A stretch of DNA of 63,968 nucleotides, filler included, from Stramenopiles sp. TOSAG23-3 (taxonomy: Eukaryota), in NCBI GenBank assembly GCA_900128585.1. It is 4 parts of 4 records of this genome, joined end to end, with 100 filler letters (N's around TTAATTAATTAA, not from the genome) between each part and the next. Parts side by side here need not be neighbours in the genome. Positions count along the whole stretch, not along the records: positions 16,378 to 32,636 come from LT642495.1; positions 32,737 to 48,991 come from LT642496.1; positions 49,092 to 63,968 come from LT642541.1; 1 more part is not named here. One strand, written 5' to 3'. The position numbers and the translations under genes were made by a program. The notes below the pieces were generated by a model. It did not search any database, was not told the DNA's origin, and saw only the letters and a list, made by a program, of their open reading frames with translations. Positions 28,206 to 50,997 of this stretch are shown in pieces; the stretch's first letter is position 1; each line of letters begins with the position of its first letter.

Positions 28206-28260
28206 TGTTCTTTTAAAACAAGAAAATTGGCTGTTATTTAAGTATGTTCTTTTAAAACAA
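28206..28260 (+). mobile_element. 3'-associated micro-element with 16-bp flanking direct repeat (putative TSD)
   Basis: Core at 28219-28240; TGTTCTTTTAAAACAA at 28206-28221 and 28245-28260. Confidence 0.65.
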
Positions 28261-28381
28261 ATTATTTAGTACATGCTTTAATAATATTACGTAATATCTA
28301 ATTTGTTTTTCTATATAATTTTTTATGTATAACAGATTATAAGGGCTGTTGAACACGTGCCCTGTGCACGCACACCATGTT

Positions 28382-31300
28382 TTACTCTTTCAACGCTTGC
28401 AGCCTATCCCGGTAGCTCTGGCGCCTGCTGGTGGTGTCGGCGGGCACCGGCGCCGGTGCCGGGGATGATTCCTCTTTCTCTACCTTCGCCGTCGACTTCG
28501 TGGCCCCGAGACGTGCCAGGCGTGCTTTCATAGCAGCCAGCTTCTCGCTGCTGGTTCGGCGGCTTGCAGTGCTGCTTCTGCCTGCGTCCTCGATGGCAAC
28601 ACTGCTGCCGCGATTGGCCCGAGGGCCCTCCACGGCAGAGGTGGCTCCGGCGGTCCGGTCCTTTGCTTCCAGCCGGTTCAATTGGGTGCGAATAAACTTT
28701 TGAAACACAACGCTCGCCGTCTTCATGTACGGTTCCACGTCCACGTTCGGGTGCTGGCGCTTGAACTCGTACAGCTCGCGAACGCCGTTGCGCGAATCTT
28801 TCGATGAAATGTTCTGAAATATCCGCTTCAGTACTTCGTCGTTCGATGCCGTTGCTGTCTCGACCGCTTCGCTCTTCGCGCTAGCTTCCGGGACTGCGGC
28901 AAGTGCAGGAGTCGGCGCCTCCGCCTTTTCCGGGGCCTCTTCTGGCGTTTCGACCACTACCTGTAGCGCCGCACCCTTGGGCGTGCGTTCAGTGGACACT
29001 GGGGCAAAGGCGGCAATCATTGCACGAATGCTGGCGTTTGCTGGGATTGGCTCAGCCATCTGGGTCCAGTTTGGAGGCCCAAGAAACTTGCAAAACGTTT
29101 TTAAAATGTTGTCCACTGCTTCCAAAACAGTGGCGTCCATCACCGTCGACAACTCTTCGACGCTGTGTGTCCCTAGCAGGGCATGAATCTCATGGTACAC
29201 GGCGTCAACGTCGACTTTCTCAAACGGCTTTGCCCCGTCGCGATCGGGTGTTTTGACCTCGCGCCGAAGCGATTTGCTGATCATTTTCGCCACGACGCTG
29301 AACATGACCTTGCTGTCTGCCAGCAAATGCACCAAACTTTGCAGCATAAGGGTGCGGTCGCAGTGGGCGATGATTCGAATGGCGGCTTCTTGAAATGCGC
29401 CCTGGTACTCTAGTTCAAATTCTTTCTTGTTTGTGCGCCTCGAGTCCACCATCCCCTTGATGCAGATCTTCACAAAGCGTTGCAACCCTGCAAGGTCGAC
29501 GTTTCGGGCCAAGTCTTTGTGCGTGGATATGCTAACGAAGGACACCAGCACCTGGCGAACAATTTTTTGCTGCCAAGCGCTAAACAAGCCGTTGCTTTCA
29601 TGGTTCCACCCAAAGCTAATTTCTATTATGCTGCAAAAGCGGTCCAAAATGGAGGGAATATTCTTTGCGATTTCCAGTGCAGCGTTCGGGTCGACGTTTT
29701 GGTAGTCGTTGTTCGGGAACACCAAAGTGTTGAAGTTCTTTGCTGCCTCCGCACACTCGAGATCCAGCGAGTCCGTTGCACTGCCATTCTTCGACGCGTC
29801 TATCCAAGTGTCAACCACGGCAATAATCTTCAGCACTTTGTCCGTCATGCCCGATTCCGTCGAGCGCTCCTGCTCAAGTTTCCGCATCGAAGGCGTCAGC
29901 AAAGGGGACTCTGCCCCACTGTCATCGAATCTGCCAGAGACGTCGATGGAAACGCCCAACTTGATAGACGCCACGGCCTTTTCTACTTCTTCCGTAGTCA
30001 GCTCTTCAAACTTGAAGGCCAAATCGTCCGCGTCGCTTGCAGCAGCCCCCCCCCCGTGCTCAGCATTGCCTCAATATCAACGTTCAAGTCTGCGGCATCG
30101 GAAGACTTCTTCGACCCAGACTTGCGCGTCGGAGAGACGGACGGAGAGCGCAAGGTGTTCTTCATGCTCTCTATCTTGTTCAGAATGTCGTTGCGCCTCT
30201 TTGTCGAGTTGTTGCCGCTGCTGGTCTGAATTCGTGAAACCGTGCTGCCCCGTTTATGCTCTGGCACGGACGAGGCTGCCTTGGAGTCGTTGCTTGGTAC
30301 TGGGGTGCCCCCTTTTGCTTCCAAGCGTTGCTTCAAAATAGTTTCTCCTTTTGAGGACAGCGACTTGCCGACACACTGCAGCAGCTTCTCGCTGTCCCTG
30401 CTCAATTTTTCCCACGCGGTGCAAATGGCCAACAGCGCGCTCTCGCGAATGATGCTTTCGTGGCTATCGATTTGGCCAGCAATGGCGCGCAACCCTTTTT
30501 GGCCGACTACCTGCCACCCCTCCTTGACGACGAGGCGCGCTAACTCTTCCAGGTTGTTCTTTCGAGAAATGCTGTTCCTAATGGCGCGCGGGTCAATCCC
30601 GTACAACACAAACTGGGCGAATTTCTGCGGACTGTGAAGTTCAGAGATCAGCTTCATCATTGAGCGATAGTTGTCTGCAAACCGCTGTATCTTGTGCCCG
30701 ACGTGTAATGCAAGGCATGGTGCAATAATACTAACTTCGTACTCCGACAGGGAGTAGCTGTCTTCCTTCAACACGTTCAACAGCGCTAGGAGCATGCCTT
30801 GAAGAGACTTCAGTACGCTGGCCTGCTTCAGGTCCAAGTGAAGCGTCGCCCACTTAAATATCAAGTCCAGGTTCGACCGCACCGCTTCTTTGTTGGCCTC
30901 GTCCTTAACGGCAACTTTCAGCATATCGCACGCTTTGCCGATGTGGTTCAATTTTTGCGAAGAGCTTGCGCTAAATGCAAACCCAAAAAATTTCACCGAC
31001 GACGCGGCTTCCAGGTTGCTGCGAAGTTTGTCCGTCAGGTCCGATGCTGGGGACTCGGGGCGGTCGGGAAGGACCCAAGGGCGCCTGGAGGCTTCCAGCT
31101 CCCTTCGTCGCTTAAACTTCTCCGGCATGACTTTCAATATCGCGGCACTGTCTTCCTTCTTTAATTGTTTCGATGAACTTTGAATCGGTGCAGAGGTTCT
31201 CCGGCTGCCCTTTCCCGCGTGCTTTGAAACGGTCGAACCGCTGGGGGCCGCCAAATCTTTTGTCCGGACGGTAGATTTTGGTATCGATGACGCCGAAGCA

Positions 31301-32636: not shown

Positions 32637-32736
32637 NNNNNNNNNNNNNNNNNNNNNNNNNNNNNNNNNNNNNNNNNNNNTTAATTAATTAANNNNNNNN
32701 NNNNNNNNNNNNNNNNNNNNNNNNNNNNNNNNNNNN
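32637..32736. other. Artificial 100-nt contig linker
   Basis: 44 N + TTAATTAATTAA + 44 N. Confidence 0.95.
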
Positions 32737-32969
32737 TTTTTTTTATTTTGGTTGTTTATTAATAGTCTTCTAGATATATTATTTGTTTTTAAATAATAAT
32801 AATAAATTATTTATTTGGTATTATAAAAAAGTATGTATATATAACTTGTATGTATTTATTAAATTCTATATATACTGCATATTTTTTAATTCTTTCTCTC
32901 TCTCTCTCGTCGTTTCGAAAAGCTTTCTTTACTTTCCCCCTTCCCCCTTCCTTTCTCGGAACCATCACC

Positions 32970-34028
32970 ATGGACAAACCATTGCACCGAACGCAACTTT
33001 CGGATGCTGTGGCTGATGCGTTGAACAAGATAGGGATTCATAAGTGTGGGCAGCTGTTTCAACAGAGTGAGGTGTCCCTGTGCCACTCTTTGGACCTTCC
33101 GTTGGGCAACGTCCGCGACATGTTGGATACGGTTGCAAAGTCGATTGCACCCAGGCCCGAGGTCGCATGGGATATACTCATGCACAAGCGTAATGCTCCG
33201 GCCTTCCTTTCGACCCAGCTGGGGCCGCTGGACCGGGCCCTTCACGGTGGCATCCCGGCCGGGACCGTCACCGAACTCGTGGGCCGGGCCGGGGTCGGGA
33301 AAACCCAGATGTGCCTGACCTTGGCCGCCCTTGCGGCGATGCCAAACCTAGAAAGTGCCGCGTGCTCCAGTGGCGTTGTATATATCGATACGGAGCAGAA
33401 GTTCGACCCCACGCGCCTTCACCAGATGGTGTGGGAACGCTGCCGCCGCCGGCAGGACGGGGTCTTTCGCCGAGCGAGCGCCGAGCAGCTCGGGCGAATC
33501 TGCACGGACGCAGTCGACCATGTGACCGTGTTCACCTTGACCAGTTGCAAAGAGCTTGTCGGGAGGCTCCGAGCCCTGCAGCGCTTGGTCATAGAAAAGA
33601 ATGTGAAACTGCTCATTGTCGATTCCGTCGCTGCGGTCGCACGGCAGGAGTATTCGTCCATCGTCCACCGGCAGGCGTGGTTGAACCAGCAGGCGTCGCT
33701 GCTGAAGTACATTGCAGAACGGTTCGACATCCCCGTCGTCGTTACCAACCAGGTCACCACGCGACTGGCGGATGACGAGAAACTTCCTGCAAACCTGACG
33801 CCGGCCTTGGGAAACACATGGTCCCACTGCGTGAACACAAGGCTGTTCTTGGACAAAGTGGGCGAAAGCACCGCCGTGGGGCGGGGCGGGGAACCCGACG
33901 CGGCAGCCGACCCCGACATCGGGTCACGGGAAATTGTGCACACCATGGTCATCCAGAAATCCCCCATGGCAGGGCGGTTGCAACTGAACTATCGAATAGG
34001 AGAGCAAGGCATCACCATTCGAACTTGA
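32970..34028 (+). CDS. RAD51B: RAD51 paralogue, most like RAD51B
   Basis: LDRALHGGIPAGTVTELVGRAGVGKTQMC (Walker A), VVYIDTE, LLIVDSVA (Walker B), VVVTNQV, ALGNTWSHCVNTRL, IQKSP; ATG at 32970. Confidence 0.85.
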   Translation: MDKPLHRTQLSDAVADALNKIGIHKCGQLFQQSEVSLCHSLDLPLGNVRDMLDTVAKSIAPRPEVAWDILMHKRNAPAFLSTQLGPLDRALHGGIPAGTVTELVGRAGVGKTQMCLTLAALAAMPNLESAACSSGVVYIDTEQKFDPTRLHQMVWERCRRRQDGVFRRASAEQLGRICTDAVDHVTVFTLTSCKELVGRLRALQRLVIEKNVKLLIVDSVAAVARQEYSSIVHRQAWLNQQASLLKYIAERFDIPVVVTNQVTTRLADDEKLPANLTPALGNTWSHCVNTRLFLDKVGESTAVGRGGEPDAAADPDIGSREIVHTMVIQKSPMAGRLQLNYRIGEQGITIRT

Positions 34029-35090
34029 ACGCCAGTGGGTGGAGGGTGGGCCCTTTTGTAATTTATGTAAATAGAAATGTTGAGATCGTTAAATAAGAAG
34101 AAGAGGGAAAGGTTTCCGATACGATGAAGCGCATATCCAATATATACCAACTAAATAATACTTGTTGTTGGTCTTATTATGATAATTTTAATTTTTTAAT
34201 TATAAGGTAGGATGTTGATGCTGTTCGATGTACTTTGGGCCATTTTTGTTAAAAAATAAAAGGACGACCGTCGTTGTTTTTTTTTAAGTAAAAGGCCATG
34301 ATAGACAGATGTTCTACAAAGTGTGCAGTGTCCTTGGCGCGAAAAAAAATCCGACTCGATTTTCAAAGTATGGAAGCGTTCGGTCTGAAAATGACAAACG
34401 AAAGCAAGGACGACCCATGACTGCATAAGTTTAGACCAGGCAATTGGCGCGATCACGATGTCCGCCCCAAAACGAACGTTTATAAATTGTTTGCCCTCCA
34501 TTGACTTGGAATTATGGTTCCTAGGGACAATTTTTTGTGAAATGGACGATTTGGACCATATATCGCCCGGACAAACGCTTATTCATTTGTGGGATTGGGA
34601 AAAACGACTCATAGGGGCACAATTTTATATACCTAAAAGGGCATTTGACGGTTTAAAATTATGAAAATTATCCTTTTTTCATAAAGATCTCTTCGTTTCG
34701 AATAGTTAACACAAAGTCCGTTGTCACTTTTCAATTCCGCGCCAAAGATACCGACCTCGCGGATCTTTTCATTTTAGTAATTTCTATGCTGTGTTTATGT
34801 ATAGGAAATTTAATCGAATTTTAAGACGACGAAGGAGGAGGAGAGACGCGACGTCGTGACGACGGCCCGCGCCGCGCCCAAAAACATAATTACTTGAAGT
34901 TGATTGTTTTCAATATACATTATGAATAAATTTAAAAAATAATGAAAGAAGCAAGTAGAGTTCATAAAGATTTTCGTGTTTGTGTTTTCGCTGTTGTCTG
35001 TCTGTCTTGGTCTTTGTCGTTTGCAGTCTTTTTCTTTTGTTTTTTTGTATTTATACATTATAGACCTTCCATTTTGGGACACGACGACGA

Positions 35091-38039
35091 ATGGGGAACT
35101 CGCAGGCAAGGACGACGGGAAAAGTCTTGGCTGCTGGCCTTATTCCGGCCAAGGGTTTACTCCCGTCCCAAATTGTCACTGCGACGAAGGACACGCTCGA
35201 TCACTTCAATGCTACGAGCGCGTCCCGCCGGTCCAGGAAAGACTTGCGGCTGTCCAACGGTTCACGGAACTTCACGTGCGCCTGCTTCAGCAAAGGGAAG
35301 ACGCTCTTGGTAGCCGGGGACGCCGACGGGTACGTGTACTTCTACCGCTGCGACGGCGCGGAAATTCTTCAAGTCCACCGGGCGCACGACAGTGCGATTA
35401 CGGTGCTCCACTGGTGCCGAAGGGTCGGAAACAGCCCTGAACGGCTGCTCACGGGGTGCCGAAATGGCACGGTCAAGCTCTGGGACCTAGGGGGGCGGGA
35501 AGCGAGCGAGGAGGGAAAGATCGTGCACGGCAGCGGGCGGTCGTTCTCCCGCAGCCTGGCGGTCGCGCCCCCTCAGAGTCCGCGCGCGTCCCGGCGACGA
35601 AACAGTGCCCCGAGGCTCCCACTTGCGGCCGTGTGCTCGGTCGCGTACAGCTCCCGGATGAGCAAGATGTACGTAGGGTTAGCGAATGGGGCGCTTCTCC
35701 TGTTCGACACCGGCAGCGCGACGCTCGTCAGCAGCAACGACACGGCCCACAGGGGCGAGATTCGCCAGCTCGTCCTCCTCCAGGTGGACCCTGACTCTGC
35801 CCCACGGCTGGACCGACACGTGCTCGACACGGTGATGAAGCTGGACACTTCCGCCGCGGTCAAGGGCGCCGTGCCCGGGGCCCAGGCGGGGCAGGAACGA
35901 ATACCGACCTCGAGCGCGGGGCAGATCCTCGTCGCGGCGAGCGTGGACGGGCGGGTGAAAGGCTGGAACGTTGCGCTGGAGGGGAAGGCGCCCCTCTTCG
36001 ACTACAACATCCACGTCGTTACGCTTTTGACCGAGTCGGTCCACCCCGACATCGTGTTCGGCGGGACGGCGGAGGGCGAGGTGTTCGTATGGCAGGTGTC
36101 GCGTGCGGGGCTGACCACCATCAAGCAGATCCGGCAGGGCCCCGGTTGTATCACAGCGATGGACTACAACTCCAAGGTGGACAAGCTCGCCCTGGCGACC
36201 GCGGAGGGGAACGCGTGCGTCATCGCGGACGTAGCGGAGCAGCTGCTCGCGCGAGGCGCCAACAGCAGCGGGGGCGGCGACTCCACCTCACCCTTGAAGC
36301 ACAGTACGGGGCGGAACAGGTCGGGATCGATCGGGGAGGAGACCGTGGACGACGTGCTGGAGTCCCTCGCCCGCCCTCCCGCAGAGGAGCCGGTGGCGGG
36401 CGCCCCGGCACCGTCCGGCGCGACCGGGAACCGGACGGACGAGGAGTGGCTGGCCGTCAGCCAGCTGTACAGCATCGCAATGAAGCTTGCAAAGTACGAC
36501 AAGAGCCGCAGCGTGATCGACCGTTCGAAAAAGAAGATGAAGTGGTGGTTCTACAAGAAGACAGGGGAAGTGGACGCCACCCTTGCGGGAAAGCAACAAA
36601 ATTTAATAGACTCCCACCGTTCGCTCGTGGACGCTTCGCTTCGAAAGGAGCGGTGGAACGCCCGGCGCCAGTCGATGATTGCCGATTTGGAGGCCCGGCA
36701 CGCGCTCGAGAAGAAGCAGCTCTTGGAGAGGCTGGACGACGAGGAGGGGGCCCTGGAGACAGTAGTCCCGGAGGGGCGCCGCCTCCTTGCGCGCGCGGCG
36801 CTGAAACTAAAAAGCCAGCACCTTGAGGCGCGGGCCTTTTGCAAGGCGGAAGCGGCCCACATCGCGCAGAAGACGCTGACGATCATCGCGAGACGGGAGG
36901 GCCAAGGGCGCCCGGTGGAGGAGTCCGAAGCGACGGAGGGGAAAGCCCTTGGCCTTCCCCCTTCGCTCCAGCGCGAACGCAGCGATACGTCGGCCGACGA
37001 CGGGGAGCTGAAGCCTGGGACCAAAGTGAAGGACCGGTACCTAGTTTTCAACCGCCGCGACAAGGGGGTGCAGTCGTTCGAAGCCCTCGACATGCTGAAA
37101 AAGCAGCGCGTCGTCGTGAAGCAGTTCCCGGAAGGGCTGCCCCTGCGGACGGACCTGCGGCACCCCGCGCTGGTACCACTCTTCGACGTATGCTCCACCC
37201 AAAAGTACACGTGCATCGTGAAGCGGTGGATGGACTCCTCCCTCGCAGAGTACGTGAAGGCCGAGGGGACGGACAACCAGTCCTTGCCGACGGAGCACGT
37301 TGCCGAAATTTTGTACCGGCTGTTGGAAGCCCTGCAGTACATCCACTCGAAGGGCCTCATCCACCGCCAGGTTCGCCCGGGCTCCATCTTCGTGGTCAAA
37401 CAGGGTGCTGGGAGGAACGACTCGGACGCGAAGGCTGTCCCACGGGCGTACCTAGAGCACTTCGGCGTTATGCCAGCGCTGGAAGGAACGGAGATGACCG
37501 AGGGCGTGAAGAAGACGTCCTTCGCGGCCCCCGAGATGTTCGGCTATGCCGCCCTGAAAGGATCGGACGTTTGGGGGATCGGGTGCGTGATGGGCTGGTT
37601 ATTTCAGACCCCCGTGGAACGGGCATCTTCGCCGCTGTTCCAAGGTGGCAATGGGGGAGAGGTTTTGAACAGTATAGCATCGCGCCTGGGCTGCCCGCCG
37701 AAATCGAAGATGGAGGAAATCGCGAAGAAGGCCGAAATCCCCGTTTCTGGCAGGCACGTGTTGACGGGGCTGGAGACCAAGTTTCAGGCGTACCAGAAGA
37801 AGCAGGGGATCGCCTCGGACAACAGCTCCAGGCTTTCAAAAATGCAGTCCTTGTCCTCCTGTATATCTAGACTGGAAAGCGAAGAGAGCGCACGGGACTT
37901 GTTGGACAAAATGCTCCAGTGGGATCCTCACGAGAGAATTTCGACCATGCAAGCCACCCAGCACGAATTTTTCAACGGCGTTCGCAGTCGACTCCTGTCG
38001 AAGCAGGAGAAGGAAAAGGACAGCGCCCGGGACGTGTAA
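35091..38039 (+). CDS. WD40-repeat + coiled-coil + degenerate protein-kinase-fold protein
   Basis: WD repeats (AHDSAITVLHW...LLTGCRNGTVKLWD; ASVDGRVKGWN); C-terminal kinase fold (LQYIHSKGLIHRQVRPGSIF, EHFG, AAPE, SDVWGIGC, LLDKMLQWDPHERI); starts MGNSQ. Confidence 0.85.
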   Translation: MGNSQARTTGKVLAAGLIPAKGLLPSQIVTATKDTLDHFNATSASRRSRKDLRLSNGSRNFTCACFSKGKTLLVAGDADGYVYFYRCDGAEILQVHRAHDSAITVLHWCRRVGNSPERLLTGCRNGTVKLWDLGGREASEEGKIVHGSGRSFSRSLAVAPPQSPRASRRRNSAPRLPLAAVCSVAYSSRMSKMYVGLANGALLLFDTGSATLVSSNDTAHRGEIRQLVLLQVDPDSAPRLDRHVLDTVMKLDTSAAVKGAVPGAQAGQERIPTSSAGQILVAASVDGRVKGWNVALEGKAPLFDYNIHVVTLLTESVHPDIVFGGTAEGEVFVWQVSRAGLTTIKQIRQGPGCITAMDYNSKVDKLALATAEGNACVIADVAEQLLARGANSSGGGDSTSPLKHSTGRNRSGSIGEETVDDVLESLARPPAEEPVAGAPAPSGATGNRTDEEWLAVSQLYSIAMKLAKYDKSRSVIDRSKKKMKWWFYKKTGEVDATLAGKQQNLIDSHRSLVDASLRKERWNARRQSMIADLEARHALEKKQLLERLDDEEGALETVVPEGRRLLARAALKLKSQHLEARAFCKAEAAHIAQKTLTIIARREGQGRPVEESEATEGKALGLPPSLQRERSDTSADDGELKPGTKVKDRYLVFNRRDKGVQSFEALDMLKKQRVVVKQFPEGLPLRTDLRHPALVPLFDVCSTQKYTCIVKRWMDSSLAEYVKAEGTDNQSLPTEHVAEILYRLLEALQYIHSKGLIHRQVRPGSIFVVKQGAGRNDSDAKAVPRAYLEHFGVMPALEGTEMTEGVKKTSFAAPEMFGYAALKGSDVWGIGCVMGWLFQTPVERASSPLFQGGNGGEVLNSIASRLGCPPKSKMEEIAKKAEIPVSGRHVLTGLETKFQAYQKKQGIASDNSSRLSKMQSLSSCISRLESEESARDLLDKMLQWDPHERISTMQATQHEFFNGVRSRLLSKQEKEKDSARDV

Positions 38040-38158
38040 TGGGGGAGACGTCGTACATGTTGTTTTTTGTTGTTGTAATTATCCATTATAGCTCTTTTCA
38101 ATAAAAAACAAATTATATAGTATGCTTTTCAATAAATATTGTACCTTTTACTCTTTTC

Positions 38159-38746
38159 TCAAAAGTGATCCTGGTCCCTGTCTCCAAGCATGTGGAAGGA
38201 CTGGCCCCCTAAATTGAAGAAATCGTCGCTCTCGTGCTCAACGGTGCGGACTTCCCGCGTGACCGTCACGTGTTGCGAGTTTCCCTTGAACGCCGAGAAC
38301 GACGAGAACGGGTCTCGCTCGCCGAAGAAAGACTCGAACATGTGGGCCGCGTCGTTCATGGTAAAACCTTCTTTTTCGTACTCCCCAAAGCGGTGAAAGC
38401 CCCCCCCACCACGCCCTCGAGAGGATTGCGACTGGAACGAAGACCCTGCCCAATCGTCGTCATATTTGGCATTGAACCCACCGGCATGTCGAGTTTCGAA
38501 TGGGTTTCCTCCGTGTGAAAACTCTTGCTCGGCCGCCTCCTGGTCTTCACGGTCGTATATCAATCTCTGTTCGGGGTCCCCGAGAACCGAGTACGCCTCG
38601 TTCACAAGCTTAAATCGTTCAGCCGCCGCATCGTCCCCTTGGTTTTTGTCCGGGTGATGTCTCAGCGCAAGCTTTCGGTACGCCTTCTTTATCTCAGCCT
38701 GGGACGCAGTCGTAGCAACCCCCAGGACGTCGTAGTAGTTGTTCAT
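38159..38746 (-). CDS. DnaJ/Hsp40 (J domain + G/F-rich region, DNAJB6-like)
   Basis: YYDVLGV...[18 protein letters not shown]...[14 protein letters not shown]; later [11 protein letters not shown]. Confidence 0.92.
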
Positions 38747-39064
38747 TCCGTTTCTTAGTCCTGTACAAGTTGGTATGCGCGTTCGTGTCTAGCACGGTGT
38801 CTACGGAATATAATTGCCAAGTACTTCACAAACTTTCGATTTGAAATTTGTTCATTTAATTAGTAGAAAAAGTTAACGACGAAAAAAAATAACAACAGTA
38901 AGTTTTATTTACAATACTTTGTACGAAGTATACAGACACTAATACACATAATTTGTTTTTTATACATACATTGAATTCAAAATTGCTTTTTCAATTTCCT
39001 CCTCCTCTTCTTCTCCTCAATTATTATTATTTAAAATAATAATAATCAATCATTATTATATATA

Positions 39065-39123
39065 TTTAAAAACAAGAAAATTGGCTGTTATTTATTTATA
39101 AGTAATTAAATTTAGTTCCTCAT
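39065..39123 (+). repeat. 3'-associated micro-element, long copy
   Basis: Core at 39073-39094 followed by TTTATAAGTAATTAAATTTAGTTCCTCAT. Confidence 0.9.
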
Positions 39124-39297
39124 ACCCTAATCCTAACTTGGTTATGTAATTTTGTTTCATTGTTATTAATTATAATACTGTAATTCTTCCTTTTTAAAAA
39201 AAAATTTATTTATATTTCTTCTTCTTTTCTTCTTTTCTTCTTTTCTTCTTCCCTCCAGGACATCGCACATGTACTCTTGATACCGCCTTGACTGGAC

Positions 39298-41031: not shown

Positions 41032-41883
41032 CCTCCAGCAAATAAATACGTAGCTTGGTGCAATTGATTCCTCGTTTGTACCCTCACATATATATATTCA
41101 ATGCCTTCGCCCGTGTGTGTGTGTGTGTATATACGTATACGTAGCTCACATTCACAATTTTCAGCTTTTGTGCATTCACTCACTCACCACTCACTCACTC
41201 ACCACACAAAAAAGACAATGTAATTCACAAGAAAGAAAGAAGGGGTGAAATCAATTATTGCAACTTCTTACCTTCCTAGCCTTCCTACCCTTTTAATCTA
41301 ATACGCTCCCCCTCCCCTCCATTCCCTCTCCCATTTTTCTTCTTCTTCTTCTTAATAACATTCCAACAATTAGGTTACAACATGTACATATGAATGTGAG
41401 TGATATAATATAATAGTAATAACGGTTTTATTTTTTTTTAGAGATGATTAAAAAAACCGACGACGATCGACGAAATTTTTTTAATTTTTATTACCCACCA
41501 GTAGTATATAGTACTACTTGGAAAAAAAAAAACTCTAAATACCACTAAAAGCAAGTAGGGGTCAACCTAAAAATGTACAAAATACTATTCACTAGTGGTA
41601 TTTCAATGCTAATTATATTTAACATAATAACAGCATTAAATTAATATCTATTTTTTCGTGAATTTTCAACAATTCGTTACGTTACCGGTACCCAACCAAC
41701 CAAGCTTGTTTCTTTAAATCTAATCAGAATACAAGAGAATCCTATTGTGTGGTGGGTGTTTCGCTTATTTTAGGTTTCTCCGAGGCAGTTTCTTACACAA
41801 AGCATAGTTCTAAAGCTGTAAACTTGATTCTTCTCTTCGAAATGATCAAATAGAAATTTACAAATTTCAAAACATTTTTTACC

Positions 41884-42507
41884 ATGCAGAAAGAAGCCGT
41901 CCAGGAAAACGAAGCACCCAAAAAGGCAACAGAAACCACCGTTCCCATGACATCTGGGGAAAGGGCATGCATAGTCGAAATGTGCAAGAGGGAACTGGAT
42001 GCCGCCATCCCGCTGGTCGTGGCCGCGGAGGCCGCGCTGGACAAGCTGCGCAAAAGAGACTTCCCAGAAGTCGGAAGGTGTAATCGCAAGCCGCCGAGTA
42101 TCGTCCACTCAGTGTGCCAGTGCGTGATCCACTTGCGGACGGGGCTTGACGATTCGATCGAGCTGAACCGGAAGACAGGGCGCGCCAAGGATATGAGTTG
42201 GAAACAATTCGAGCGAATGTACTTTCGTGTCGAGGCCTTCGTCTACGGGCTGAAGTCGTTCAAGAGTGAGATCGACGCTGGCAAGGTGCCGCAGTCCAAC
42301 GTCGATGCGGCGAAGAGCGCCATGAGGGCGATGGGCGACGACTTTTCGGCGGACGCGGTCCGTAAAAACGCCAAGGGGAGTGAGTGGGCGGCGCTGGCTG
42401 CCGCTCTGGTCGACTGGATGCGCGAAATGGTGTCGTACTACGACGTCATTGTTGCGGTTGAGGAGAAGAAGAAGGCGCTGGCCGGAGGCAAGGCGACGGG
42501 TGACTAA
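41884..42507 (+). CDS. Stand-alone dynein heavy-chain stalk-head (microtubule-binding domain) protein
   Basis: CKRELDAAIPLVVAAEAALDKLRKRDFPEV...KPP...SWK...AAALVDWMREMVSYYDVIVAVEEKKKAL matches the stalk/MTBD of axonemal dyneins. It has its own ATG and stop between AT-rich spacers. Confidence 0.8.
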   Translation: MQKEAVQENEAPKKATETTVPMTSGERACIVEMCKRELDAAIPLVVAAEAALDKLRKRDFPEVGRCNRKPPSIVHSVCQCVIHLRTGLDDSIELNRKTGRAKDMSWKQFERMYFRVEAFVYGLKSFKSEIDAGKVPQSNVDAAKSAMRAMGDDFSADAVRKNAKGSEWAALAAALVDWMREMVSYYDVIVAVEEKKKALAGGKATGD

Positions 42508-42569
42508 AATATTTTCTTTGTTATTAATATTTAAGGTCAATGCCGATCGCTTTCGTGTTCGGCTTGGGT

Positions 42570-42630
42570 TCTGGCATGTTTAAACAAGAAAAATTTGGCT
42601 GTTATTTTTTATAGTAATCTGGCATGTTTA
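42570..42630 (+). mobile_element. 3'-associated micro-element with 13-bp flanking direct repeat (putative TSD)
   Basis: AACAAGAAAAATTTGGCTGTTATTTTTTATAGTAA between TCTGGCATGTTTA at 42570-42582 and 42618-42630. Confidence 0.65.
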
Positions 42631-43139
42631 TCTTTCTTTCGATTGGAGAATGTTTTGAAAATGTTTTAGTTTGTCTGTAGTATTTTAATTGTTTTTTGGT
42701 GTATATGCTTTCTTTTCTTCGTTAGAATCTATTGACGAATCTTTTTGAAATGATAGGAATATAATCTGTGAACAAAGAAACGTTACCGGTACCGGTACGG
42801 TAAAGAGAACAACAGAGAGGGGATTGTTGAAGAAAGACAAAAAAAAAAAGAAGAAAAAAAAAACAAGATCTTTTTAGAAGGGTTATACAATCAGCTTTGA
42901 GATGCATGCTTGACTAGGCAATCAAAAACTGATCTAGGATTTATAGTGTAATTTTATATTACCTATATAAATATGTACTTATATATTTAGGGAGAGAGAT
43001 GACTACCGTATTCTTCACGAGTTATTTTTTGTTGTCCTCGATCGTAGGCGAAACTCCAAAACTCCTAAAATAATAACAGGTACTAGGATGGAAAATAAGA
43101 AAATGACACCAACAACAACAAAATAAAAAAAAGTCCACA

Positions 43140-44883
43140 TTACTGACCTCCTCCCGGACTGAAATTGTTGCGCTGCTTCAGCGTGTTTAACAATTCCAGT
43201 ATACACTCGGTCTGAATGTCAAGTTCTTCTCCATTGCTTCCGCCGGAGACTGTCACGTCTTTCCCGTACCTGTCCAACAGCGCCGCTTTCATCCGTTGAA
43301 AGGTTGCTTCCTCGTCCTTGGGCCTCACCATACCTTTCAGCCCATTTCGAAGCAGCCGCTCCAAAAAGGTAGTGTCTATGTGGTATTCTACAGGATGGGT
43401 TCCGTCGGACTTGACCACAGGAATGTGCCGGGCAACTTCTTCCGTGGCCTCGTCTACAATCGACAGCGGGAGTGCCATCGCTTTTTTCGTCATAATTTTC
43501 CCACATACGCCCATCTTCTTTTTTTCCACTTTGTTCGGCGTTGCTTTGCGCTCGCGATGGTTGGACCAGGCCATTTTTTCTATCATGCGGCCCAGCTCTT
43601 TATCGGACATGCTCTTCTTGGACTTGATGGAAGCTTGCACCAAGGAGGCCATCTCTTCCACTATCCCGGGAGAAAACTCTGCCGCGCTTCGGACTTCTAT
43701 GTACGCATCGACGAGTATAGCCAGCAAAATGTTGAGCATAATGAAGACATTTATCAACACGAACGTGAAGAAGTAAAATTGCCAGACGTTCTTCATGGAC
43801 GATTCTCTCATCTCGTAATGGATCGTTTCAATGTTGCCCTGCATGAACAAGAGGATGACCGTCTCCATCGATTTGCTAATTGTGGAGAACGACGACGAGA
43901 TTTCCCCAAAAATAACAACTCCACACACCGCATAGACAGTGTTGATCAGCGCAAATATTAAAACGAAATGAAACAGGTCGTTCTTCGCGCGTTCGATTGT
44001 TCTCGTCACCAACCCTAATCGGGCCCCATCCTAGCTTGGGAACCTGTTTTCCTCCAAACATGACGGTTTGGGCATTGGCAGTAACCGACTCTGTGACAAC
44101 TCCTTTTGCCTGCACGTCGTTCATATACTTCCTAAAGATGCAGCGAGAGGTATCCTTTGCCCCCTGGGGGCAGATATTGAACCCCATATTGTTGACCCCT
44201 TTCTTGTCAAACTCTGCAGTAAAATTGAACATTATGTCTGTAGTTCGGTTGAACATTCCGCAGTCGTTGGAACAGCCAAACCGGTCAACGGCAGGGAAAT
44301 CGTTGCCTTTGTTTTCACACACGCCATCTCCACATGGCGGATCCACAAACACACGGTTTACAAGCTTGTCCCTCAGCCAAGTGTACACCTCCTGTTTCTC
44401 CTGTATGACCAGCGGATTTTGGTCATTTATACTCACTTGCAAGGAGGAGTATTGCTCAAAGGCTTTCTCTCCACCGCTCTGCATGCTAAGGATGAGCAAG
44501 TACATGCAGAGGATGAGGAGGAAGTAAACGCACTGGCAGTAACCGCTTCGGTTCGATTGCCGTTGCTCTACCCGTTGGGCAAGTTTTAATACTACCTCAT
44601 CGCCCGATATAGATAGGATTTCGTTGCCAACCACCTTGTTTAAATGTCTTGCGGCCTTTTCCAAGTGGTACTTATCCAGTTTGCCATCGTCGTTCCCATA
44701 CTTTTCTTTGAAGGCATCGAACTCTGCTTTTGACATCTGCAGCACGCTCGCGTGCTTCCGCGTCACGATCGATTTTTGTCTGATTCGGCTGTACGAGTCA
44801 CTGGGCGGGGGAGGCGATTTTGGATCATCTTGACTCAAAGGCGCCACTTTCACGGGGTTTATTGTTTCACTAATTTTTGCCAT
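43140..44883 (-). pseudogene. Polycystin-2-like cation channel with apparent internal deletion and frameshift near 44022 (pseudogene or assembly lesion)
   Basis: ORF 43876..44883 has S1 (CVYFLLILCMYLLILSM) and part of the extracellular domain. A different frame resumes at RLGLVTRTIERAKNDLFHF with S5-pore-S6 (FIMLNILLAILVDAY). S2-S4 are absent. Confidence 0.7.
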
Positions 44884-45905
44884 CTATCCAATTGAAACAA
44901 ATACATGCAAATCAACCATCAGCGTTTGTTTGTATACAAAACTAGTGAGGTCAATATAATCCCTCGGGTTCCTGTTTCTATTCTGGATTTGAGAATCAAC
45001 ATATAGTCAAAATTCAATCATAGAGAGAAACAGAAACAGAAAGAAAGATTTAAACATTAAATAATTATATAACAAAAGTCGTTATACATTTTTTTGTATT
45101 TCTTCTTCTTTCCTATAATATTATTTTCATATTACAACTACTATTATTCATGCTATACCTCGTAATAGTCGTCTATTATCATCATCTATTTGATTAAAAT
45201 TTCTTTCTTTTTTTTTTAAAAGTGTGTCTAAAAAGTAGATATAAATTAGATCTCAGAGTTTATTATGGATCCTATCCGCTTATTTTAAAGGATATTGCGG
45301 TTGGGGGCCTAGCAGGGCTTTACCATAACACAATGTTACATTAAATAACATCTAAGCAAAAATGACGAAAAAACTAATAATTTTTTACCAAAACTGTTCA
45401 CTATACCAATTTATATAGGTAAATATTACAAGTATAACATTTAAAGTTTTTGTATTATGTTACGCCCCTATATCTAGGTATTAATATTTATACCGGTACC
45501 GGTAGCTGGTTCGGAGGACATTTAAATTTTTTTCCAATCCTCTTTTTCTTCTTTTTTTTGAGAATTGTTGATAAATAATTCTCTCTGTATACTTATGTTG
45601 AGGGTAGGACCCTAAATTTTTTTTTTTCGTTTTGATTGTATGTAGTGTACAACAAAGCTTAAATAAAAAAATATAAAAACACACCACCCACCACAAATTT
45701 TTTGAATCAAAACAGTTATTACAAATTTCCCATTATTAAACAATAAAAGATGCTCTATCTTCTTATCTATGAAGCGATTTTAGACAACAATTGAGTACGT
45801 TTCACTTTTCATCGTGTGCAGGAAGACCGACGAACTAACCACCACAACGACAGCAGCAACTACTACTATACAACCACAACAACAACGCAGCGCGGGACAT
45901 TGACG

Positions 45906-47558
45906 ATGATGAGCGTGTCCAACGGCCGGTCGTTCGTACGTGCCTTGGTTTTGGCGGCAGTGGTTGTCGCGTCGGCGAGCGCGGCAAAGCTCGGTTGCCC
46001 GGCAACTGCCCTTCCGAACACCCCGGAGGAGGCTGCGTACCAGAAGAAGCTTTCGGCGCAGTTCCTTGGGCATTGGGAAGGGGACCCCTTCACACCGATA
46101 GACGAAGCGTTTGAGGGGCTGTCCGCCCAGGTCGGCGTGGCCCCGGACGTGCTCCGGTACTTCCTTGGCTGCCTGAGCTGCTACGTCCTTGCGGTGTTCC
46201 ACAGCTTTATCCCGGACCGGAACGCAGACGTAAAGCACGCGTACTCCCTGATCTGCGGGCTGACCCTGTCCTGGATCAGCTTTGGGGTCAACACGCTGAT
46301 CCCCCTGGGATCGTCCCTGCTCGTGTTCTACATTTGCAAGTACGTGAAGAGCCGGTACACCCCCGCGATCGTCTTCTTCGTCGCCATGGGCCTGTCGAGC
46401 GGGTGCCACGTCTACCGCCTGTTCATCGACTACGGGGGGTACACGCTGGACGTCAGCGGGCCGCAGATGATCATCACGATCAAGCTGACGTCGTTCGCGT
46501 GGAACTGCTATGACCACGGGAAGAAGCAGGACAAGTACAAGCACCGGGTGGCCAGCGCCGTGGACATCGACAACACGCCCCTGCTCCACTTCCTGTCCTT
46601 CATTTTCTTCTTCGCGGGGTACCTGGCCGGCCCGGGCTTTGAGTTCCAGGAGTACGTCCGGTTCACGAACGGAAAGCTCTTCGAGAGCGATCCGGAGGGA
46701 AAGCCGTCCCTACTCTCCCGGGTCATCCCGTCGATGTATTCGTTCCTTACGGGAATCTTCCACATGGGCGTCATGCTGACCCTGTCGAAGCAGTTCGATC
46801 CGTTCAGCCTCCTGTGCGACTCGTTCGACACCGTCCCGGTCTACAAGCAGATCCTTCTCATCTACGTCAGCGTCGCCCTCACGCGCGCCAAGTACTACTG
46901 CATCTGGAACATCGCGGACGGCGCCATGGTCCTCTCTGGGTTCGGGTACAACGGCCGGGATGCAAAGACGAACCAGGTCAAGTGGGACCGGATGGTCAAC
47001 GCCCACATCTTTCGCGTGGAGGCTGGGGAGAGCGTTCGGGAAGCGATCAACTCGTGGAACATCAAGACCTCCATGTGGCTGCGAAAGTACTCGTACGAGC
47101 GCCTGTTGGAAAACAATTATTCCCAGGCCATTTCGCAGTACGTCACCATGCTGGTGTCCGGGTTTTGGCACGGGTTTTACGGGGGCTATTACCTGACGTT
47201 CGGGTTCGGCGCCTACCTGCAGCAGATCGGCAAAAGCTTGCGCGGCGCCCTTCGCCCGATCTTCGAGGATTCGGCCTCGGCGAAGACCCCGTTCTGGTAC
47301 AACACGGGCGGCCGGGTCCTCACCGCGTTGATGCTCAACTGGTGCACGGTGTCGTTCATGCTCGTCGACAGCGCGAACGCGTTCAAAGTGTGGAAGTCGG
47401 CGTCCTACGTTGGGTTCGGCTTCTGCTTGCTGACGCAGTTCGGCCTCTTTGCCCTCAAGTCTACCTCGTGGCATCGGGCGAAGGCGAAGGCTTACAAGGC
47501 TTTGGTCGCAGAGCGGCGCGCAAAGAAGCGCGCCGCGGCGGAGAAGAAGACGCAGTAA
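45906..47558 (+). CDS. MBOAT-family lysophospholipid acyltransferase (ALE1/LPCAT-like)
   Basis: LDVSGPQMIITIKLTSFAWNCYD, GYLAGP, WNIKTSMWLR, SGFWHGFYGGYY; C-terminal KKxx (KKTQ) ER-retrieval motif; ATG at 45906. Confidence 0.93.
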   Translation: MMSVSNGRSFVRALVLAAVVVASASAAKLGCPATALPNTPEEAAYQKKLSAQFLGHWEGDPFTPIDEAFEGLSAQVGVAPDVLRYFLGCLSCYVLAVFHSFIPDRNADVKHAYSLICGLTLSWISFGVNTLIPLGSSLLVFYICKYVKSRYTPAIVFFVAMGLSSGCHVYRLFIDYGGYTLDVSGPQMIITIKLTSFAWNCYDHGKKQDKYKHRVASAVDIDNTPLLHFLSFIFFFAGYLAGPGFEFQEYVRFTNGKLFESDPEGKPSLLSRVIPSMYSFLTGIFHMGVMLTLSKQFDPFSLLCDSFDTVPVYKQILLIYVSVALTRAKYYCIWNIADGAMVLSGFGYNGRDAKTNQVKWDRMVNAHIFRVEAGESVREAINSWNIKTSMWLRKYSYERLLENNYSQAISQYVTMLVSGFWHGFYGGYYLTFGFGAYLQQIGKSLRGALRPIFEDSASAKTPFWYNTGGRVLTALMLNWCTVSFMLVDSANAFKVWKSASYVGFGFCLLTQFGLFALKSTSWHRAKAKAYKALVAERRAKKRAAAEKKTQ

Positions 47559-47816
47559 CGTCCGTGGGGAGGGGGGATGGGGACGGAGGAGGCGAGAAAA
47601 GAAAAGTTTTTTTTACCCCAGGCCCCCATCAGGAGAGGTCTATAAATTTTAGGAAACAAAATGTATGCTGCTACTGTTTAGGTATGGCACTGTCCGTGAA
47701 GCCACTTGTACGTAAGAAGCGCTCTGTTGTCGACCACAACGTTCTTAATTTAAGCTTAACCTTATGATTTAGTCTTCGGAACTATTTTTAGTGAGCCATA
47801 TCATTAGTTTTTTTTT

Positions 47817-48569
47817 TTAGTGAGCCTCCCCATCGTCCTGGTACCCCGCAGAGTCGATCGTCGGGTCTTTCAAGCCGTCCAGCGTAAGAATGGCCTCGTC
47901 CATCAGCGCCCATATGGGGACTTCGGCGTGCCCCTCGTCGTTGAACTTTTTGCGGGCGTTCAAAAACTTAATCTCAACGACCGTCGCACACTCTACGGGG
48001 AGCCCGCCCATCTTCTTGACGAGCTCGATCCCTGCGCACAGGGTCCCCCCCGTGGCGACCAAGTCGTCGATAAGCAGGACACGGTCGCCCTTTTGGACCG
48101 CCCCGCGAGGGATGGTCAGGACGTCCCTTCCCGCGTACTCTTTCCCATACTCTGTACCAGCGACGGAGTTGGGCATTTTACCCTTCTTTCGAAGCATAAA
48201 GAACGGTTTCTTCAGAGCCAAAGCGATCGGTGGGCCCAACACAAACCCGCGGGCGTCGAAGCCGCAGATAGAGTCAATGTTCTTGCCACGGTACCGTTCG
48301 ACGAACACGTCGATGGCCATTTGGAACGCTTCCGGGTCTTTCAAGAACCCGCCAATGTCGTAGAACCGATCGATGCCTTTGAACGGAAAGTACGGGGTCA
48401 CGCTAGCGATCCGCTTCGCCACCTCCCCGTTTGGGGAGTAGTCCGCATACTTTTTCGAACCCCCACCGCTGCTGCTGCTTTTGCTCCCAAAATGGTAGGC
48501 ACCTACCCCTATCGCAACCCCCGCAGCAAGCAGTGCCAACGGGTCTTGATCGTTTAAAAAAGACGACAT
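47817..48569 (-). CDS. APT: Adenine phosphoribosyltransferase with N-terminal hydrophobic anchor
   Basis: FPFKGIDRFYDI, GFDARGF, MLRKKGKMP, PRPP-binding VLLIDDLVATGGT; ATG at 48569 followed by LALLAAGVAIGVGAYHF. Confidence 0.92.
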   Translation of the reverse strand: MSSFLNDQDPLALLAAGVAIGVGAYHFGSKSSSSGGGSKKYADYSPNGEVAKRIASVTPYFPFKGIDRFYDIGGFLKDPEAFQMAIDVFVERYRGKNIDSICGFDARGFVLGPPIALALKKPFFMLRKKGKMPNSVAGTEYGKEYAGRDVLTIPRGAVQKGDRVLLIDDLVATGGTLCAGIELVKKMGGLPVECATVVEIKFLNARKKFNDEGHAEVPIWALMDEAILTLDGLKDPTIDSAGYQDDGEAH

Positions 48570-48907
48570 ATCCTTCTTGAGTTTAATTCGAATAGAACAA
48601 TAAGTAAATAAAAAACAAATACGTAACAGATTTAAAAAAGGAAGAAAGAAATCGAATAAATAAACAAGCATTTAATCTACTACTATGTATTTAATTAAAC
48701 TACTTCTCTATATAAATATCGATATCTACTTCTTTTTTTATAATAAATATGATTCCAATGATGATGATGTACCATAATAATATATTATTATTATTATTGA
48801 TATTTTTTTCCCTTCTTCTTCTTCTTCTTCCTTTTTTTTGTTTTGTTGTTTTGTTTTCTTCTTTTGCAACTACTAATCAGTTTTGCGAGTTTTTTCTTCT
48901 TCTTCTT

Positions 48908-49092
48908 TTCTTTTCTCTTCTCTCTTCTCTTCTCTTCTCTTCTCTTCTCTTCTCTTCTCTTCTCTTCTCTTCTCTTCTCTTCTCTTCTCTTNNNNNNNNN
49001 NNNNNNNNNNNNNNNNNNNNNNNNNNNNNNNNNNNTTAATTAATTAANNNNNNNNNNNNNNNNNNNNNNNNNNNNNNNNNNNNNNNNNNNNT

Positions 49093-49534: not shown

Positions 49535-50710
49535 ATGGTTCAATTGGACTCGAACGCGAAAGCGTTTTGGCTTATGTACATGGCCTTCGTGTTGTCAAAC
49601 GCGATCTTCATAGACACGTACTACATATTTTATGACGGTTTGAAAGAGAGTCAGTATTGGCTTCATGGCATTGCGCTAGGAACTGCAAAAGAGTACGATC
49701 CGTTGTGGGCGGAGGGCGGCAAGGCGATGAAAGTTGCGGTTTTTCTTTCGCTGTTCGTCACAGTGTGGTTCGCGTTCTCCGTCGGTCCCACCTTAATAGT
49801 CGACAGTAGTTTTGGAAACTACAAGAGTACCACAAAGCTGGTTTCGTACCTTTATTGTGCGGGCAGCGCTATCTCTACGATCCTAGTATTTGCGCTCGAA
49901 TTCAAAGAGTACTGTGCAAATTCCGATCTGGCCCCATCTTTCTCCATGTGGACCTGGTTCACTTTCTCCCTGCAGATTGTCGTCGTAAAATGTTTGTGGG
50001 ACCACTTAAAGACCGGGGATAAAGCGGAACAAAAACTAGAAAAAATTTCCCGCAAAAAAAGTGGGGGGTTCAAAAAGTTTGCCAAGTCAAAGCTGAATGA
50101 TTTCACTGCAAGCAAGCGCTTTAAGGACAAGGTGAGGCATATATTTGACTCTGTCGACATTGACAAGAGTGGGTCCGTGGACGTTTCCGAAGTGTACTCC
50201 ATGGTGCTCTTGATTTACTTGTTCGTTGCCCAGTACACGGTTGTCAACGCAAAGACAATTCCAACCATCGAAGAAGTAAAAGAACTTTACGACAAGATGG
50301 ACAAAGATGGAAACGGCACGCTAGACTACGACGAATTCGAAGCGTTGGCGGTGCTAGAAGTGGAAGCCGTCTCTGCAAGAATCAGCACCCAGCTTGCCTG
50401 CCAGCTAGCCGCCTCCCCCTTCCTGGCGACATGTCTGGTGTCGTTCGTCTGTCAATACGTGCTTGTAGGCTCATTTCACGCGCTGTTAGTGGGCAATTTG
50501 CACCGTGCTTTGTTGGACTATGTCTTCACTAGAACCATTGCGATTACAATCCTGACGTGCGTTCTGAACATGACTGTCATGCCATTTCTTCTGCATTTAA
50601 TTGATCTCATTTGGTACGAATCTATCCGAAGCAAGGAGACCAGGTTAAAACTTGAAAAGAAGTCTTTGTTTGGAAAGTTTTTGGAAGCAGTAATTCACTA
50701 CTTCAACTAA
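49535..50710 (+). CDS. Multi-pass membrane protein with an EF-hand pair
   Basis: About four N-terminal TM segments, EF-hands DIDKSGSVDVSE and DKDGNGTLDYDE, two further hydrophobic segments; ATG at 49535. Confidence 0.8.
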   Translation: MVQLDSNAKAFWLMYMAFVLSNAIFIDTYYIFYDGLKESQYWLHGIALGTAKEYDPLWAEGGKAMKVAVFLSLFVTVWFAFSVGPTLIVDSSFGNYKSTTKLVSYLYCAGSAISTILVFALEFKEYCANSDLAPSFSMWTWFTFSLQIVVVKCLWDHLKTGDKAEQKLEKISRKKSGGFKKFAKSKLNDFTASKRFKDKVRHIFDSVDIDKSGSVDVSEVYSMVLLIYLFVAQYTVVNAKTIPTIEEVKELYDKMDKDGNGTLDYDEFEALAVLEVEAVSARISTQLACQLAASPFLATCLVSFVCQYVLVGSFHALLVGNLHRALLDYVFTRTIAITILTCVLNMTVMPFLLHLIDLIWYESIRSKETRLKLEKKSLFGKFLEAVIHYFN

Positions 50711-50940
50711 AGCGTGAAAGAGAATAGGCCAGGAAGAGGACATAGAGAGGTGTGTGGGTAATAATTGTGTACGTGCGTCGCGATGACGAGGAGCCACTTT
50801 ACCAATCGTTACACACAAATAAGAAATCTTAAATCAATATATATCTAAAACACACTTAAACAATACTATATAATTTGTTTTTTTCTAAAACACACTTTAT
50901 AATTTGTTTTCTAATTACGGGGAGAACTTCGTGAGACTTC

Positions 50941-50997
50941 TAATTTTTTCTGCCGCTAAATAACAGCCAATTTTCTTGATTTTTAATTTTTTCTGCC
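50941..50997 (-). mobile_element. 3'-associated micro-element with 14-bp flanking direct repeat (putative TSD)
   Basis: Core (reverse complement) at 50957-50978; TAATTTTTTCTGCC at 50941-50954 and 50984-50997. Confidence 0.65.

Follow-up and report, generated by a model that had tools for sequence, protein, structure and literature searches.

How do inserts of only 23, 35 and 29 nt come to lie between perfect direct repeats at three separate places in one genome? The question is raised by a 63,968-nt stretch of DNA from Stramenopiles sp. TOSAG23-3 (assembly GCA_900128585.1), made up of four parts joined by filler and referred to here as the window, in which the three inserts carry one motif and are each bracketed by repeats peculiar to the locus. 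A first-pass annotation had taken them for the products of target-primed reverse transcription (TPRT) from an oligo-U-tailed small RNA. The analysis presented here puts the probability at roughly 0.8 that they are instead extremely 5′-truncated copies of a dispersed non-LTR (long terminal repeat) retrotransposon, resembling the long interspersed nuclear elements (LINEs), in the genome of an uncultured marine eukaryote. Copies of the motif have a fixed 3′ end, a continuous series of 5′ truncations, a common tail consensus, an excess of flanking repeats, and continuity with an open reading frame (ORF). The type of event is ordinary; the family is undescribed and has a T-rich tail.

Fixed 3′ ends, variable 5′ starts and flanking repeats

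The three sites, with their target-site duplications (TSDs), are as follows.

28206–28221 (no strand): site A, first copy of the TSD, 16 bp, TGTTCTTTTAAAACAA; its minus-strand TTGTTTT overlaps the element tail
28222–28244 (minus): site A insert, 23 nt; family-1 stub with 5′ start TACTT
28245–28260 (no strand): site A, second copy of the TSD, TGTTCTTTTAAAACAA, 16 bp
42570–42582 (no strand): site B, first copy of the TSD, 13 bp, TCTGGCATGTTTA
42583–42617 (minus): site B insert, 35 nt; stub (ACTATAAA / CCAAATTTTTCTTG sub-lineage) with 5′ start TTACT
42618–42630 (no strand): site B, second copy of the TSD, TCTGGCATGTTTA, 13 bp
50941–50954 (no strand): site C, first copy of the TSD, 14 bp, TAATTTTTTCTGCC
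50955–50983 (plus): site C insert, 29 nt; family-1 stub with 5′ start GCT
50984–50997 (no strand): site C, second copy of the TSD, TAATTTTTTCTGCC, 14 bp

The motif AAATAACAGCCAATTTTCTTG lies inside all three inserts, in the variant form AATAACAGCCAAATTTTTCTTG at site B. The repeat pairs and insert sizes first reported for these sites proved exact (16, 13 and 14 bp around 23, 35 and 29 nt), and so did the remark on a common junction: in element orientation, CTTG(A/T)TTT(T) is followed by TAA or AAA at all three sites, which is also the tail consensus of the whole family.

Exact direct repeats in close proximity are scarce in the window. A window-wide scan, from which simple-sequence repeats, N runs, and gaps below 5 nt were excluded, kept 28 rows, 15 of them from one coding tandem repeat at 23242–23362; only about seven independent repeats of at least 13 bp were present, and three of these bracket the motif. 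At a background of 1.0%, the probability that three or more of six copies would have a repeat of at least 13 bp is 2e-5. The coding tandem repeat has a 9 nt unit (GAAGAGAAG), lies within an ORF, and adjoins an N run.

The window holds six exact occurrences of the 13-mer core of the motif, AAATAACAGCCAA. Allowing two mismatches at most raises the count to 12, versus 2.67 expected, and none of 100 shuffles attains 12. When the six copies are aligned, three without obvious repeats extend further in one direction, through …AAATTTTAATTACTT, and the three repeat-flanked copies begin within that same stretch (at TACTT, TTACT, and GCT).

Family-wide, a metagenome scan with the exact 19-mer ATAACAGCCAATTTTCTTG recovered at least 135 stretches holding 154 copies; together with the window this gives 159 copies, of which 155 are unique. 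The motif is the invariant 3′ end (…AATTACTTAAATAACAGCCAATTTTCTTG, then T4–5 and A1–3) of longer repeats. Subfamily A comprises 26 copies with …TAAATCTAGATTTCAGTTCGCAGTACATTAATTTTAATTACTT upstream, among them the window copy at 9533–9575, and subfamily B comprises 18 copies with …CCAAGTTAGGATTAGGGTAYGASGAAGCTAAATTTAATTACTT upstream, including 39068–39162; the two have only their last ~40 nt in common. Further types are the ACTATAAA type of site B, whose CCAAATTTTTCTTG variant is also found at locus L023, and the CGCGGTA type of 19187–19234. Separately, the 3′ untranslated region (UTR) of subfamily B carries a sequence similar to a telomere repeat of the TTAGGG type, TTAGGATTAGGGTA, some 45–60 nt before its 3′ end (L022, L025, L044, and others; window 39120–39140).

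A blastn search of the window and all loci, with the long copy L025 as query, returned matches that end at query positions 619–639 and start anywhere between 243 and 601; one end is thus fixed and the other truncated at all points. Where repeats define the 5′ boundary (46 repeat-flanked copies, minus artefacts caused by neighbouring copies), the part before the 19-mer core ranges continuously from 0 to 283 nt, and this spread argues against the discrete small RNA that the first-pass annotation had proposed as the source. The 5′ part is shorter than 30 nt in 24 of the 46 copies with a repeat of at least 10 bp within 300 nt, and at the extreme stand stubs of little beyond the core itself (19-mer plus 0–4 nt: L010, L059, L070, L101, L076, L064, and L024). 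At least four of the copies (L061, L113, L068, and L089) have the exact 19-mer in an unrelated, GC-richer context and no T-tail; these probably match by chance or lie in coding sequence of other organisms.

The first-pass annotation had also cautioned that the remaining window copies show no clear TSD. They have no obvious repeats and are longer copies (~43–95 nt) belonging to subfamilies A and B and a third; a seventh, degenerate copy was found in addition.

9533–9575 (plus): longer copy with subfamily A 3′ UTR, at least ~43 nt, …TTCGCA.TACATTAATTTTAATTACTT…; no exact flanking repeat
19187–19234 (minus): longer copy, at least ~48 nt, of the type …TTTTCGCGGTA…GAGGAAG.TAAATTTTAATT.CTT… (CGCGGTA type); compare L026, L098, and L129
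39068–39162 (minus): copy with subfamily B 3′ UTR, ~95 nt, …CCAAGTTAGGATTAGGGTATGAGGAA…; 87.5% identity to L025 over 96 nt
52998–53022 (minus): seventh, degenerate micro-copy, ATAACAGCCAATTTTTTGTTTTT; weak 7 nt flanking repeat TTTTTAT

Flanking repeats were counted as exact repeats that start no more than 10 nt after CTTG and recur within 120 nt upstream, in the 137 of 155 unique copies that have 120 nt upstream and 40 nt downstream free of N. Repeats of at least 11 bp flank 27 of the 137 (19.7%) and repeats of at least 13 bp flank 12 (8.8%). The corresponding values are 1.6% and 0.7% in a cross-paired control, in which each downstream flank was set against the upstream flanks of other loci (n = 2707), and 2.2% (47/2109) and 1.0% at AT-rich positions (at least 70% AT and at least 200 nt from any motif). 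Odds ratios for motif copies over controls are 10–15, and about 11–15 for repeats of at least 11 bp, with p-values that are approximate because the control positions overlap. Repeats are therefore enriched around the motif over both backgrounds (27/137 versus 1.6% and 2.2%), and they behave as TSDs beside an element with one end fixed and the other truncated, which supports the TPRT signature of the earlier reading. Duplication length varies (~7–16 bp; 13–16 bp for the window pairs). When the upstream search is widened to 300 nt, a repeat of at least 10 bp accompanies 46 of 153 unique copies, although at least seven of these 46 repeats are pieces of neighbouring element copies rather than duplications.

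After CTTG the consensus reads TTTT(T)A(A), and 98 of 152 copies have a T-run of four or five. The T-run leads into one or more A in 82% of copies, compared with 40% for background T-runs; an A-run of five or more is present in only 16 of 152, and the tail is thus not poly(A). Most duplications start with T1–4 A1–3, which makes the junction ambiguous by 1–5 nt. At site A the TTGTTTT of the duplication represents 7 nt of identity to the element end, the pattern expected if a nicked target anneals to the 3′ end of the RNA before extension; such short homology between the tail and the start of the duplication fits the priming by annealing suggested at the outset. Target preference amounts to a T-run/A-run only, and copies are dispersed in unrelated AT-rich spacers. 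Only 5 of 45 repeat-flanked copies sit immediately behind an older tail, and such placement is therefore no rule.

A second micro-element family accompanies the first. The 11-mer TATAATTTGTT gave, as by-catch, 33 unique matches in the loci and the window, many of which read …GAGAGTCTTAAAACATACTATATAATTTGTTTTT. Family 2, so defined, consists of abundant T-tailed stubs with flanking repeats of 12–14 bp (loci include L008, L020, L048, L110, and L121), and, although otherwise unrelated, families 1 and 2 both end in TTGTTTTT. The target at site A is itself the T-tail of a family-2-like sequence (…AAATAATTTGTTTT). What had been described as a short local duplication without the element at 50844–50910 turns out to be a second T-tailed micro-element with a 14 bp duplication of its own.

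38094–38136 (minus): family-2 stub, 19 nt CATACTATATAATTTGTTT between 12 bp duplications TTTATTGAAAAG
50844–50910 (plus): two family-2 tails, of which the first (26 nt, ending ATAATTTGTTTTTT) lies between 14 bp repeats TCTAAAACACACTT

Elsewhere in the window, at 47785–47826, a 13 bp direct repeat TTTTTAGTGAGCC surrounds a 16 nt insert ending in a T-run, which may represent either a third family of stubs or no more than a duplication.

The empty alleles anticipated by the first-pass annotation were sought in contigs of four runs across 32737–48991. No empty allele was seen among the rows listed; site B is filled in three of the four runs (X3, X5, and X10), whose contigs cross the left flank and left repeat and reach 26–29 nt into the insert, and one X3 contig spans from within the insert through the right repeat. 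These contigs place the filled site B in a second cell as well as in two metagenomes of other studies. Among the contigs listed for X7, none bridges the site. Contigs break within the motif at 39091 and at 42608–42611 because the motif is repeated, and read depth in motif bins is 15–430 times that of neighbouring bins, which is not a copy number. All-versus-all blast of the metagenome loci found no orthologous pairs that differ by a copy. In the same region, one X3 contig (from another sample of coded organism A) has 128 other letters in place of the 977 nt at 43046–44024, which is either structural variation between cells or an assembly effect.

Paralogous empty sites are nevertheless provided by nested insertions. 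At L033, an antisense stub of 18 nt with a 7 nt repeat (ACATTAA) sits within a subfamily A tail; at L105, a family-2 stub with ~3 nt repeated at the junction does likewise; and each is absent from the other 25 of 26 subfamily A copies. An antisense family-2 stub at L051 may be a third case, judging by its sequence. L063 (reverse strand, ~20–100) is composite: a family-1 stub is followed directly by a family-2 stub inside a single 13 bp duplication, GAAACAGTAAAAA, which fits template switching.

A reading frame upstream of the tail

Subfamilies A and B have a 3′ UTR of ~100–130 nt, and upstream of it lies the C-terminus of an ORF (…SEISDEEVDYGS…SSW..L*). Since the end of the ORF lies upstream, the fixed end corresponds to the sense-strand 3′ end, and in the sense RNA of the element the motif forms the invariant 3′ terminus: …AAUUACUUAAAUAACAGCCAAUUUUCUUG, then U4–5 and A1–3. 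The template first proposed for the inserts was accordingly right in part. The sense RNA does end in ...CUUG(U/A)UUUU; however, a discrete oligo-U-tailed small RNA is not supported, as the motif runs on into at least two 3′ UTR subfamilies and the ORF.

A protein search with the ORF tail identified four sequences with this C-terminus (P0001–P0004), among which P0002 is a fragment of 776 aa. An exhaustive search of representative proteins returned 265 relatives, of which the 150 listed do not exceed 419 aa; short fragments are expected because the repeat breaks assemblies, and a dedicated search found no proteins longer than P0002. Walking upstream, P0156 bridges P0002 to P0157, which starts MLAAFADDLTIV (…AFADD…) and has FPRRRGGMG further on. 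Motif C of reverse transcriptases reads (F/Y)ADD, and the FADD of P0157 is a candidate for it. In the ESM Atlas, the nearest named clusters to P0157 are RVT_1 (score 0.92, 177/256 features in common, 20/30 hits), and reverse-transcriptase-like regions of Prp8 are also among the matches; residues 150–620 of P0002 give a weak zf-RVT lead (0.88). The AlphaFold model of P0157 was too poor for a fold search (mean predicted local distance difference test, pLDDT, of 43.6), and no relatives of P0157 were found in genome contigs or viral contigs.

P0002 was modelled by AlphaFold from 63 aligned fragments (mean pLDDT 55.9), with a confident domain at approximately residues 340–560. The top Foldseek rows for this model are R2 retrotransposon proteins, with 9dou_A first (E 0.067, probability 0.90) and 9nl2_A, 9nl3_A, 8iby_C, and 8gh6_A next; Bse634I, influenza PA endonuclease, and Prp8 come after these, and every row lies above E 0.001. 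Structural alignment by VIA-align to the R2 C-terminal linker and nuclease region gave Z 8.1 (root-mean-square deviation 6.2, 216 aligned) and Z 7.8, and alignment to PD-(D/E)xK nucleases gave Z ~7: a middling match, as the tool itself warns that Z values of 7–8 are common for unrelated models. A Cys/His cluster lies at approximately residues 318–345, and acidic residues are conserved. The odds are about even that the family is an R2-like LINE with a restriction-like endonuclease (RLE).

One relative, P0077, has an FAE1 / type III polyketide synthase-like domain fused to a fragment of the element ORF, and is probably a gene prediction that runs from a host gene into an adjoining element copy. 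Apart from that FAE1 domain, Pfam returned nothing relevant for eight representative relatives.

Proposed mechanism and rival explanations

From these patterns we infer a reverse transcription step, a nuclease activity, and an order of nicks. An element-encoded nuclease would nick AT-rich spacer DNA at T-run/A-run sites, and the freed 3′ end would anneal to the U-rich tail of the RNA through 1–7 nt of homology. The reverse transcriptase would then copy only ~20–35 nt before the complementary DNA is joined across the break, with a second nick 13–16 bp away giving rise to the locus-specific direct repeats. The T-rich tail, the ~20 nt stubs, and the TTGTTTTT end of the second family together suggest priming by tail homology with very low initial processivity.

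Several results weigh against a truncated LINE-like retrotransposon as the source. The rows listed hold neither a joint nor a deletion that would take out the insert of site B, and an empty allele was not found. Around 80% of copies are without an exact repeat of at least 11 bp within 120 nt, and some of the longer-range repeats are, as stated, debris of neighbouring copies. A stable fold was not predicted for the 3′ end (z +1.32, RNA folding), which leaves a recognition hairpin without support. The proteins come from metagenome fragments and are tied to the window solely via the common 3′ UTR sequence, with no match to P0002 in the window by tblastn. Pfam found nothing in P0002, P0005, P0155–P0157, or the other element fragments tested, and searches of PDB sequences with the element proteins gave no matches. 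The reverse transcriptase core upstream of P0157 was not recovered among the fragments, nor were N-terminal zinc fingers, and the candidate assignment of P0157 as a reverse transcriptase is a lead from a sequence motif and a language model. Besides the middling R2 match, no catalytic set is assignable among the conserved acidic residues of P0002.

One broader reading retains the machinery and widens its templates. It would prime on a U-rich end (…UUGUUUUU), not an A-rich one, common to at least two otherwise unrelated RNAs and abort early, leaving mainly patches of 20–60 nt that continually rewrite the 3′ flanks of genes in a compact genome; this general form is rather unlikely. Such an early-abort micro-insertion process might also operate at breaks independently of the element's nuclease.

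Improbable, too, is a dedicated Pol III-type small RNA with an oligo-U tail that a reverse transcriptase or a telomerase-like enzyme would copy at staggered breaks, as a micro-insertion or break-healing system apart from ordinary retrotransposition. The inserts of only 23–35 nt with a U-rich tail would suit it, as would the 24 of 46 duplication-defined copies with less than 30 nt upstream of the core and the identical TTGTTTTT end of an unrelated second stub family; nuclease-independent insertion of element RNA at breaks is likewise compatible with the data. Against this, the motif runs without a break into 3′ UTRs and an ORF, the 5′ ends form a continuum with no discrete start, Rfam finds no family in the window, and the ORF has a predicted R2-like nuclease-fold domain. 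Healing of the telomerase type would also be at odds with a single motif copy per site and the lack, at the sites, of tandem arrays of a short templated unit; the telomerase-like or break-healing system once suggested for these inserts is not needed to explain them.

Less likely again, and very much so, is that the motif is a functional 3′-flank signal—a terminator, a 3′-end processing signal, or a protein-binding site—beside repeats that arose by slippage or duplication in AT-rich DNA. Each of the seven window copies does have a long ORF whose stop codon is ~35–140 nt away, and other short duplications are present in AT-rich spacers. Yet, read by eye, the orientation of the copies relative to the nearest gene is mixed (~4 antisense, 3 sense), and a tandem duplication would have doubled the motif, whereas each site has one motif and two repeats. 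The 9–12-fold enrichment of repeats over AT-rich controls also speaks against a signal, which would leave the graded 5′ truncations and the connection with an ORF unaccounted for.

Least probable of the competing explanations are miniature DNA transposons (MITE-like) moving by cut-and-paste with TSDs, to which the short, AT-rich, abundant, gene-proximal copies and the inverted motif pairs at loci such as L123 and L135 might point, but duplication length is not fixed (~7–16 bp), single copies have no terminal inverted repeat, one end is fixed while the other is truncated, and the two members of an inverted pair were inserted separately, each between flanks of its own. A spliced-leader relic was ruled out because the copies are not upstream of same-strand genes, and ciliate-type eliminated sequences were ruled out by the long standard-code ORFs and the conservation of inserts between sites.

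With a truncated retrotransposon as the favoured source, a puzzling micro-element becomes a legible archive of retrotransposition in a marine eukaryote not yet in culture, and its 3′ tail becomes a ready marker with which insertions can be counted and dated, both in metagenomes and in single-cell genomes. The result also carries a warning for annotation, as conserved 3′-flank motifs here would be mobile-element debris rather than regulatory signals. Low-processivity priming, if true, would make the family a natural system well suited to the study of how TPRT begins.

The window itself is eukaryotic, with long intron-poor ORFs (dynein-type AAA, dynein stalk, TOG, LCIB-type carbonic anhydrase, SelO, PX/PH, and kinase/WD40) in GC-richer coding blocks separated by AT-rich spacers, and its DNA recurs in small runs of coded organism A and in marine metagenomes and metatranscriptomes. 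Rfam gave no matches in the window at the gathering threshold, a tRNA search was equally empty, and a 16-mer of the motif had no match on either strand in the open-access literature searched. At 16278–16377, 32637–32736, and 48992–49091, paired runs of 44 N stand 12 nt apart; these were taken as masked, and their coordinates are those of the filler between parts. TC-rich microsatellites adjoin two of the three pairs.

Comparison with known systems

LINE-1 nicks its target at T/A-rich sites and relies on short homology between primer and tail, both of which resemble the mechanism proposed for the present family, and its known truncations are far longer than the shortest of the present stubs (19-mer core plus 0–4 nt). 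Further likenesses to 5′-truncated, 'dead on arrival' LINE-1 copies (PMC2912911) are the fixed 3′ end, the 5′ truncation, and TSDs of ~7–16 bp. The two differ in the tail, which is T4–5 A1–3 here and not poly(A), and in the nuclease, whose predicted fold C-terminal in the ORF looks PD-(D/E)xK-like, unlike the N-terminal APE type of LINE-1.

Partner LINEs and short interspersed nuclear elements (SINEs), as well as LINE subfamilies, that have a common 3′ tail are known for 'stringent' recognition of the 3′ end. The present family is similar in that differing 3′ UTRs (A, B, the ACTATAAA type, and the CGCGGTA type) have their last ~40 nt in common; it differs in that this common tail has no predicted stable hairpin, and a head of Pol III type was not seen, although no search aimed at one was made.

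The composite at L063 resembles the U6/L1 and other chimeric retrocopies, which arise by template switching or RNA ligation (PMC4476161 and PMC6789731). It differs from them in being a single example and in having element tails, rather than cellular RNAs, as both partners.

R2 and its relatives afford the closest structural comparison by predicted fold, as the best matches of the C-terminal domain are the R2 linker and nuclease region. Elements of the R2, NeSL, CRE, and Utopia group have, C-terminal to the reverse transcriptase, a zinc knuckle and then a PD-(D/E)xK nuclease domain. According to Kojima and Jurka (PMC4640811), RLE-type elements have the order zinc finger, reverse transcriptase, zinc finger, RLE; they make precise 3′ junctions and variable 5′ junctions and are mostly target-specific, and Utopia families among them have duplications of 0–20 bp. 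The present copies resemble this pattern in their precise 3′ end, varied 5′ junctions, and variable TSDs, and resemble R2-like elements also in their want of a poly(A) tail and in their occasional insertion beside earlier copies. R2, Utopia, and most of their relatives occupy one repeated target gene, a habit typical of the group but not universal (PMC4640811), whereas the copies described here are dispersed in AT-rich spacers beside many genes; R2-like elements that are not site-specific are on record (PMC7650587). A further difference is that searches of Pfam and of PDB sequences disclosed no similarity. The family is probably a very divergent LINE lineage, unrecognised by Pfam, that is related to the R2 type but dispersed.

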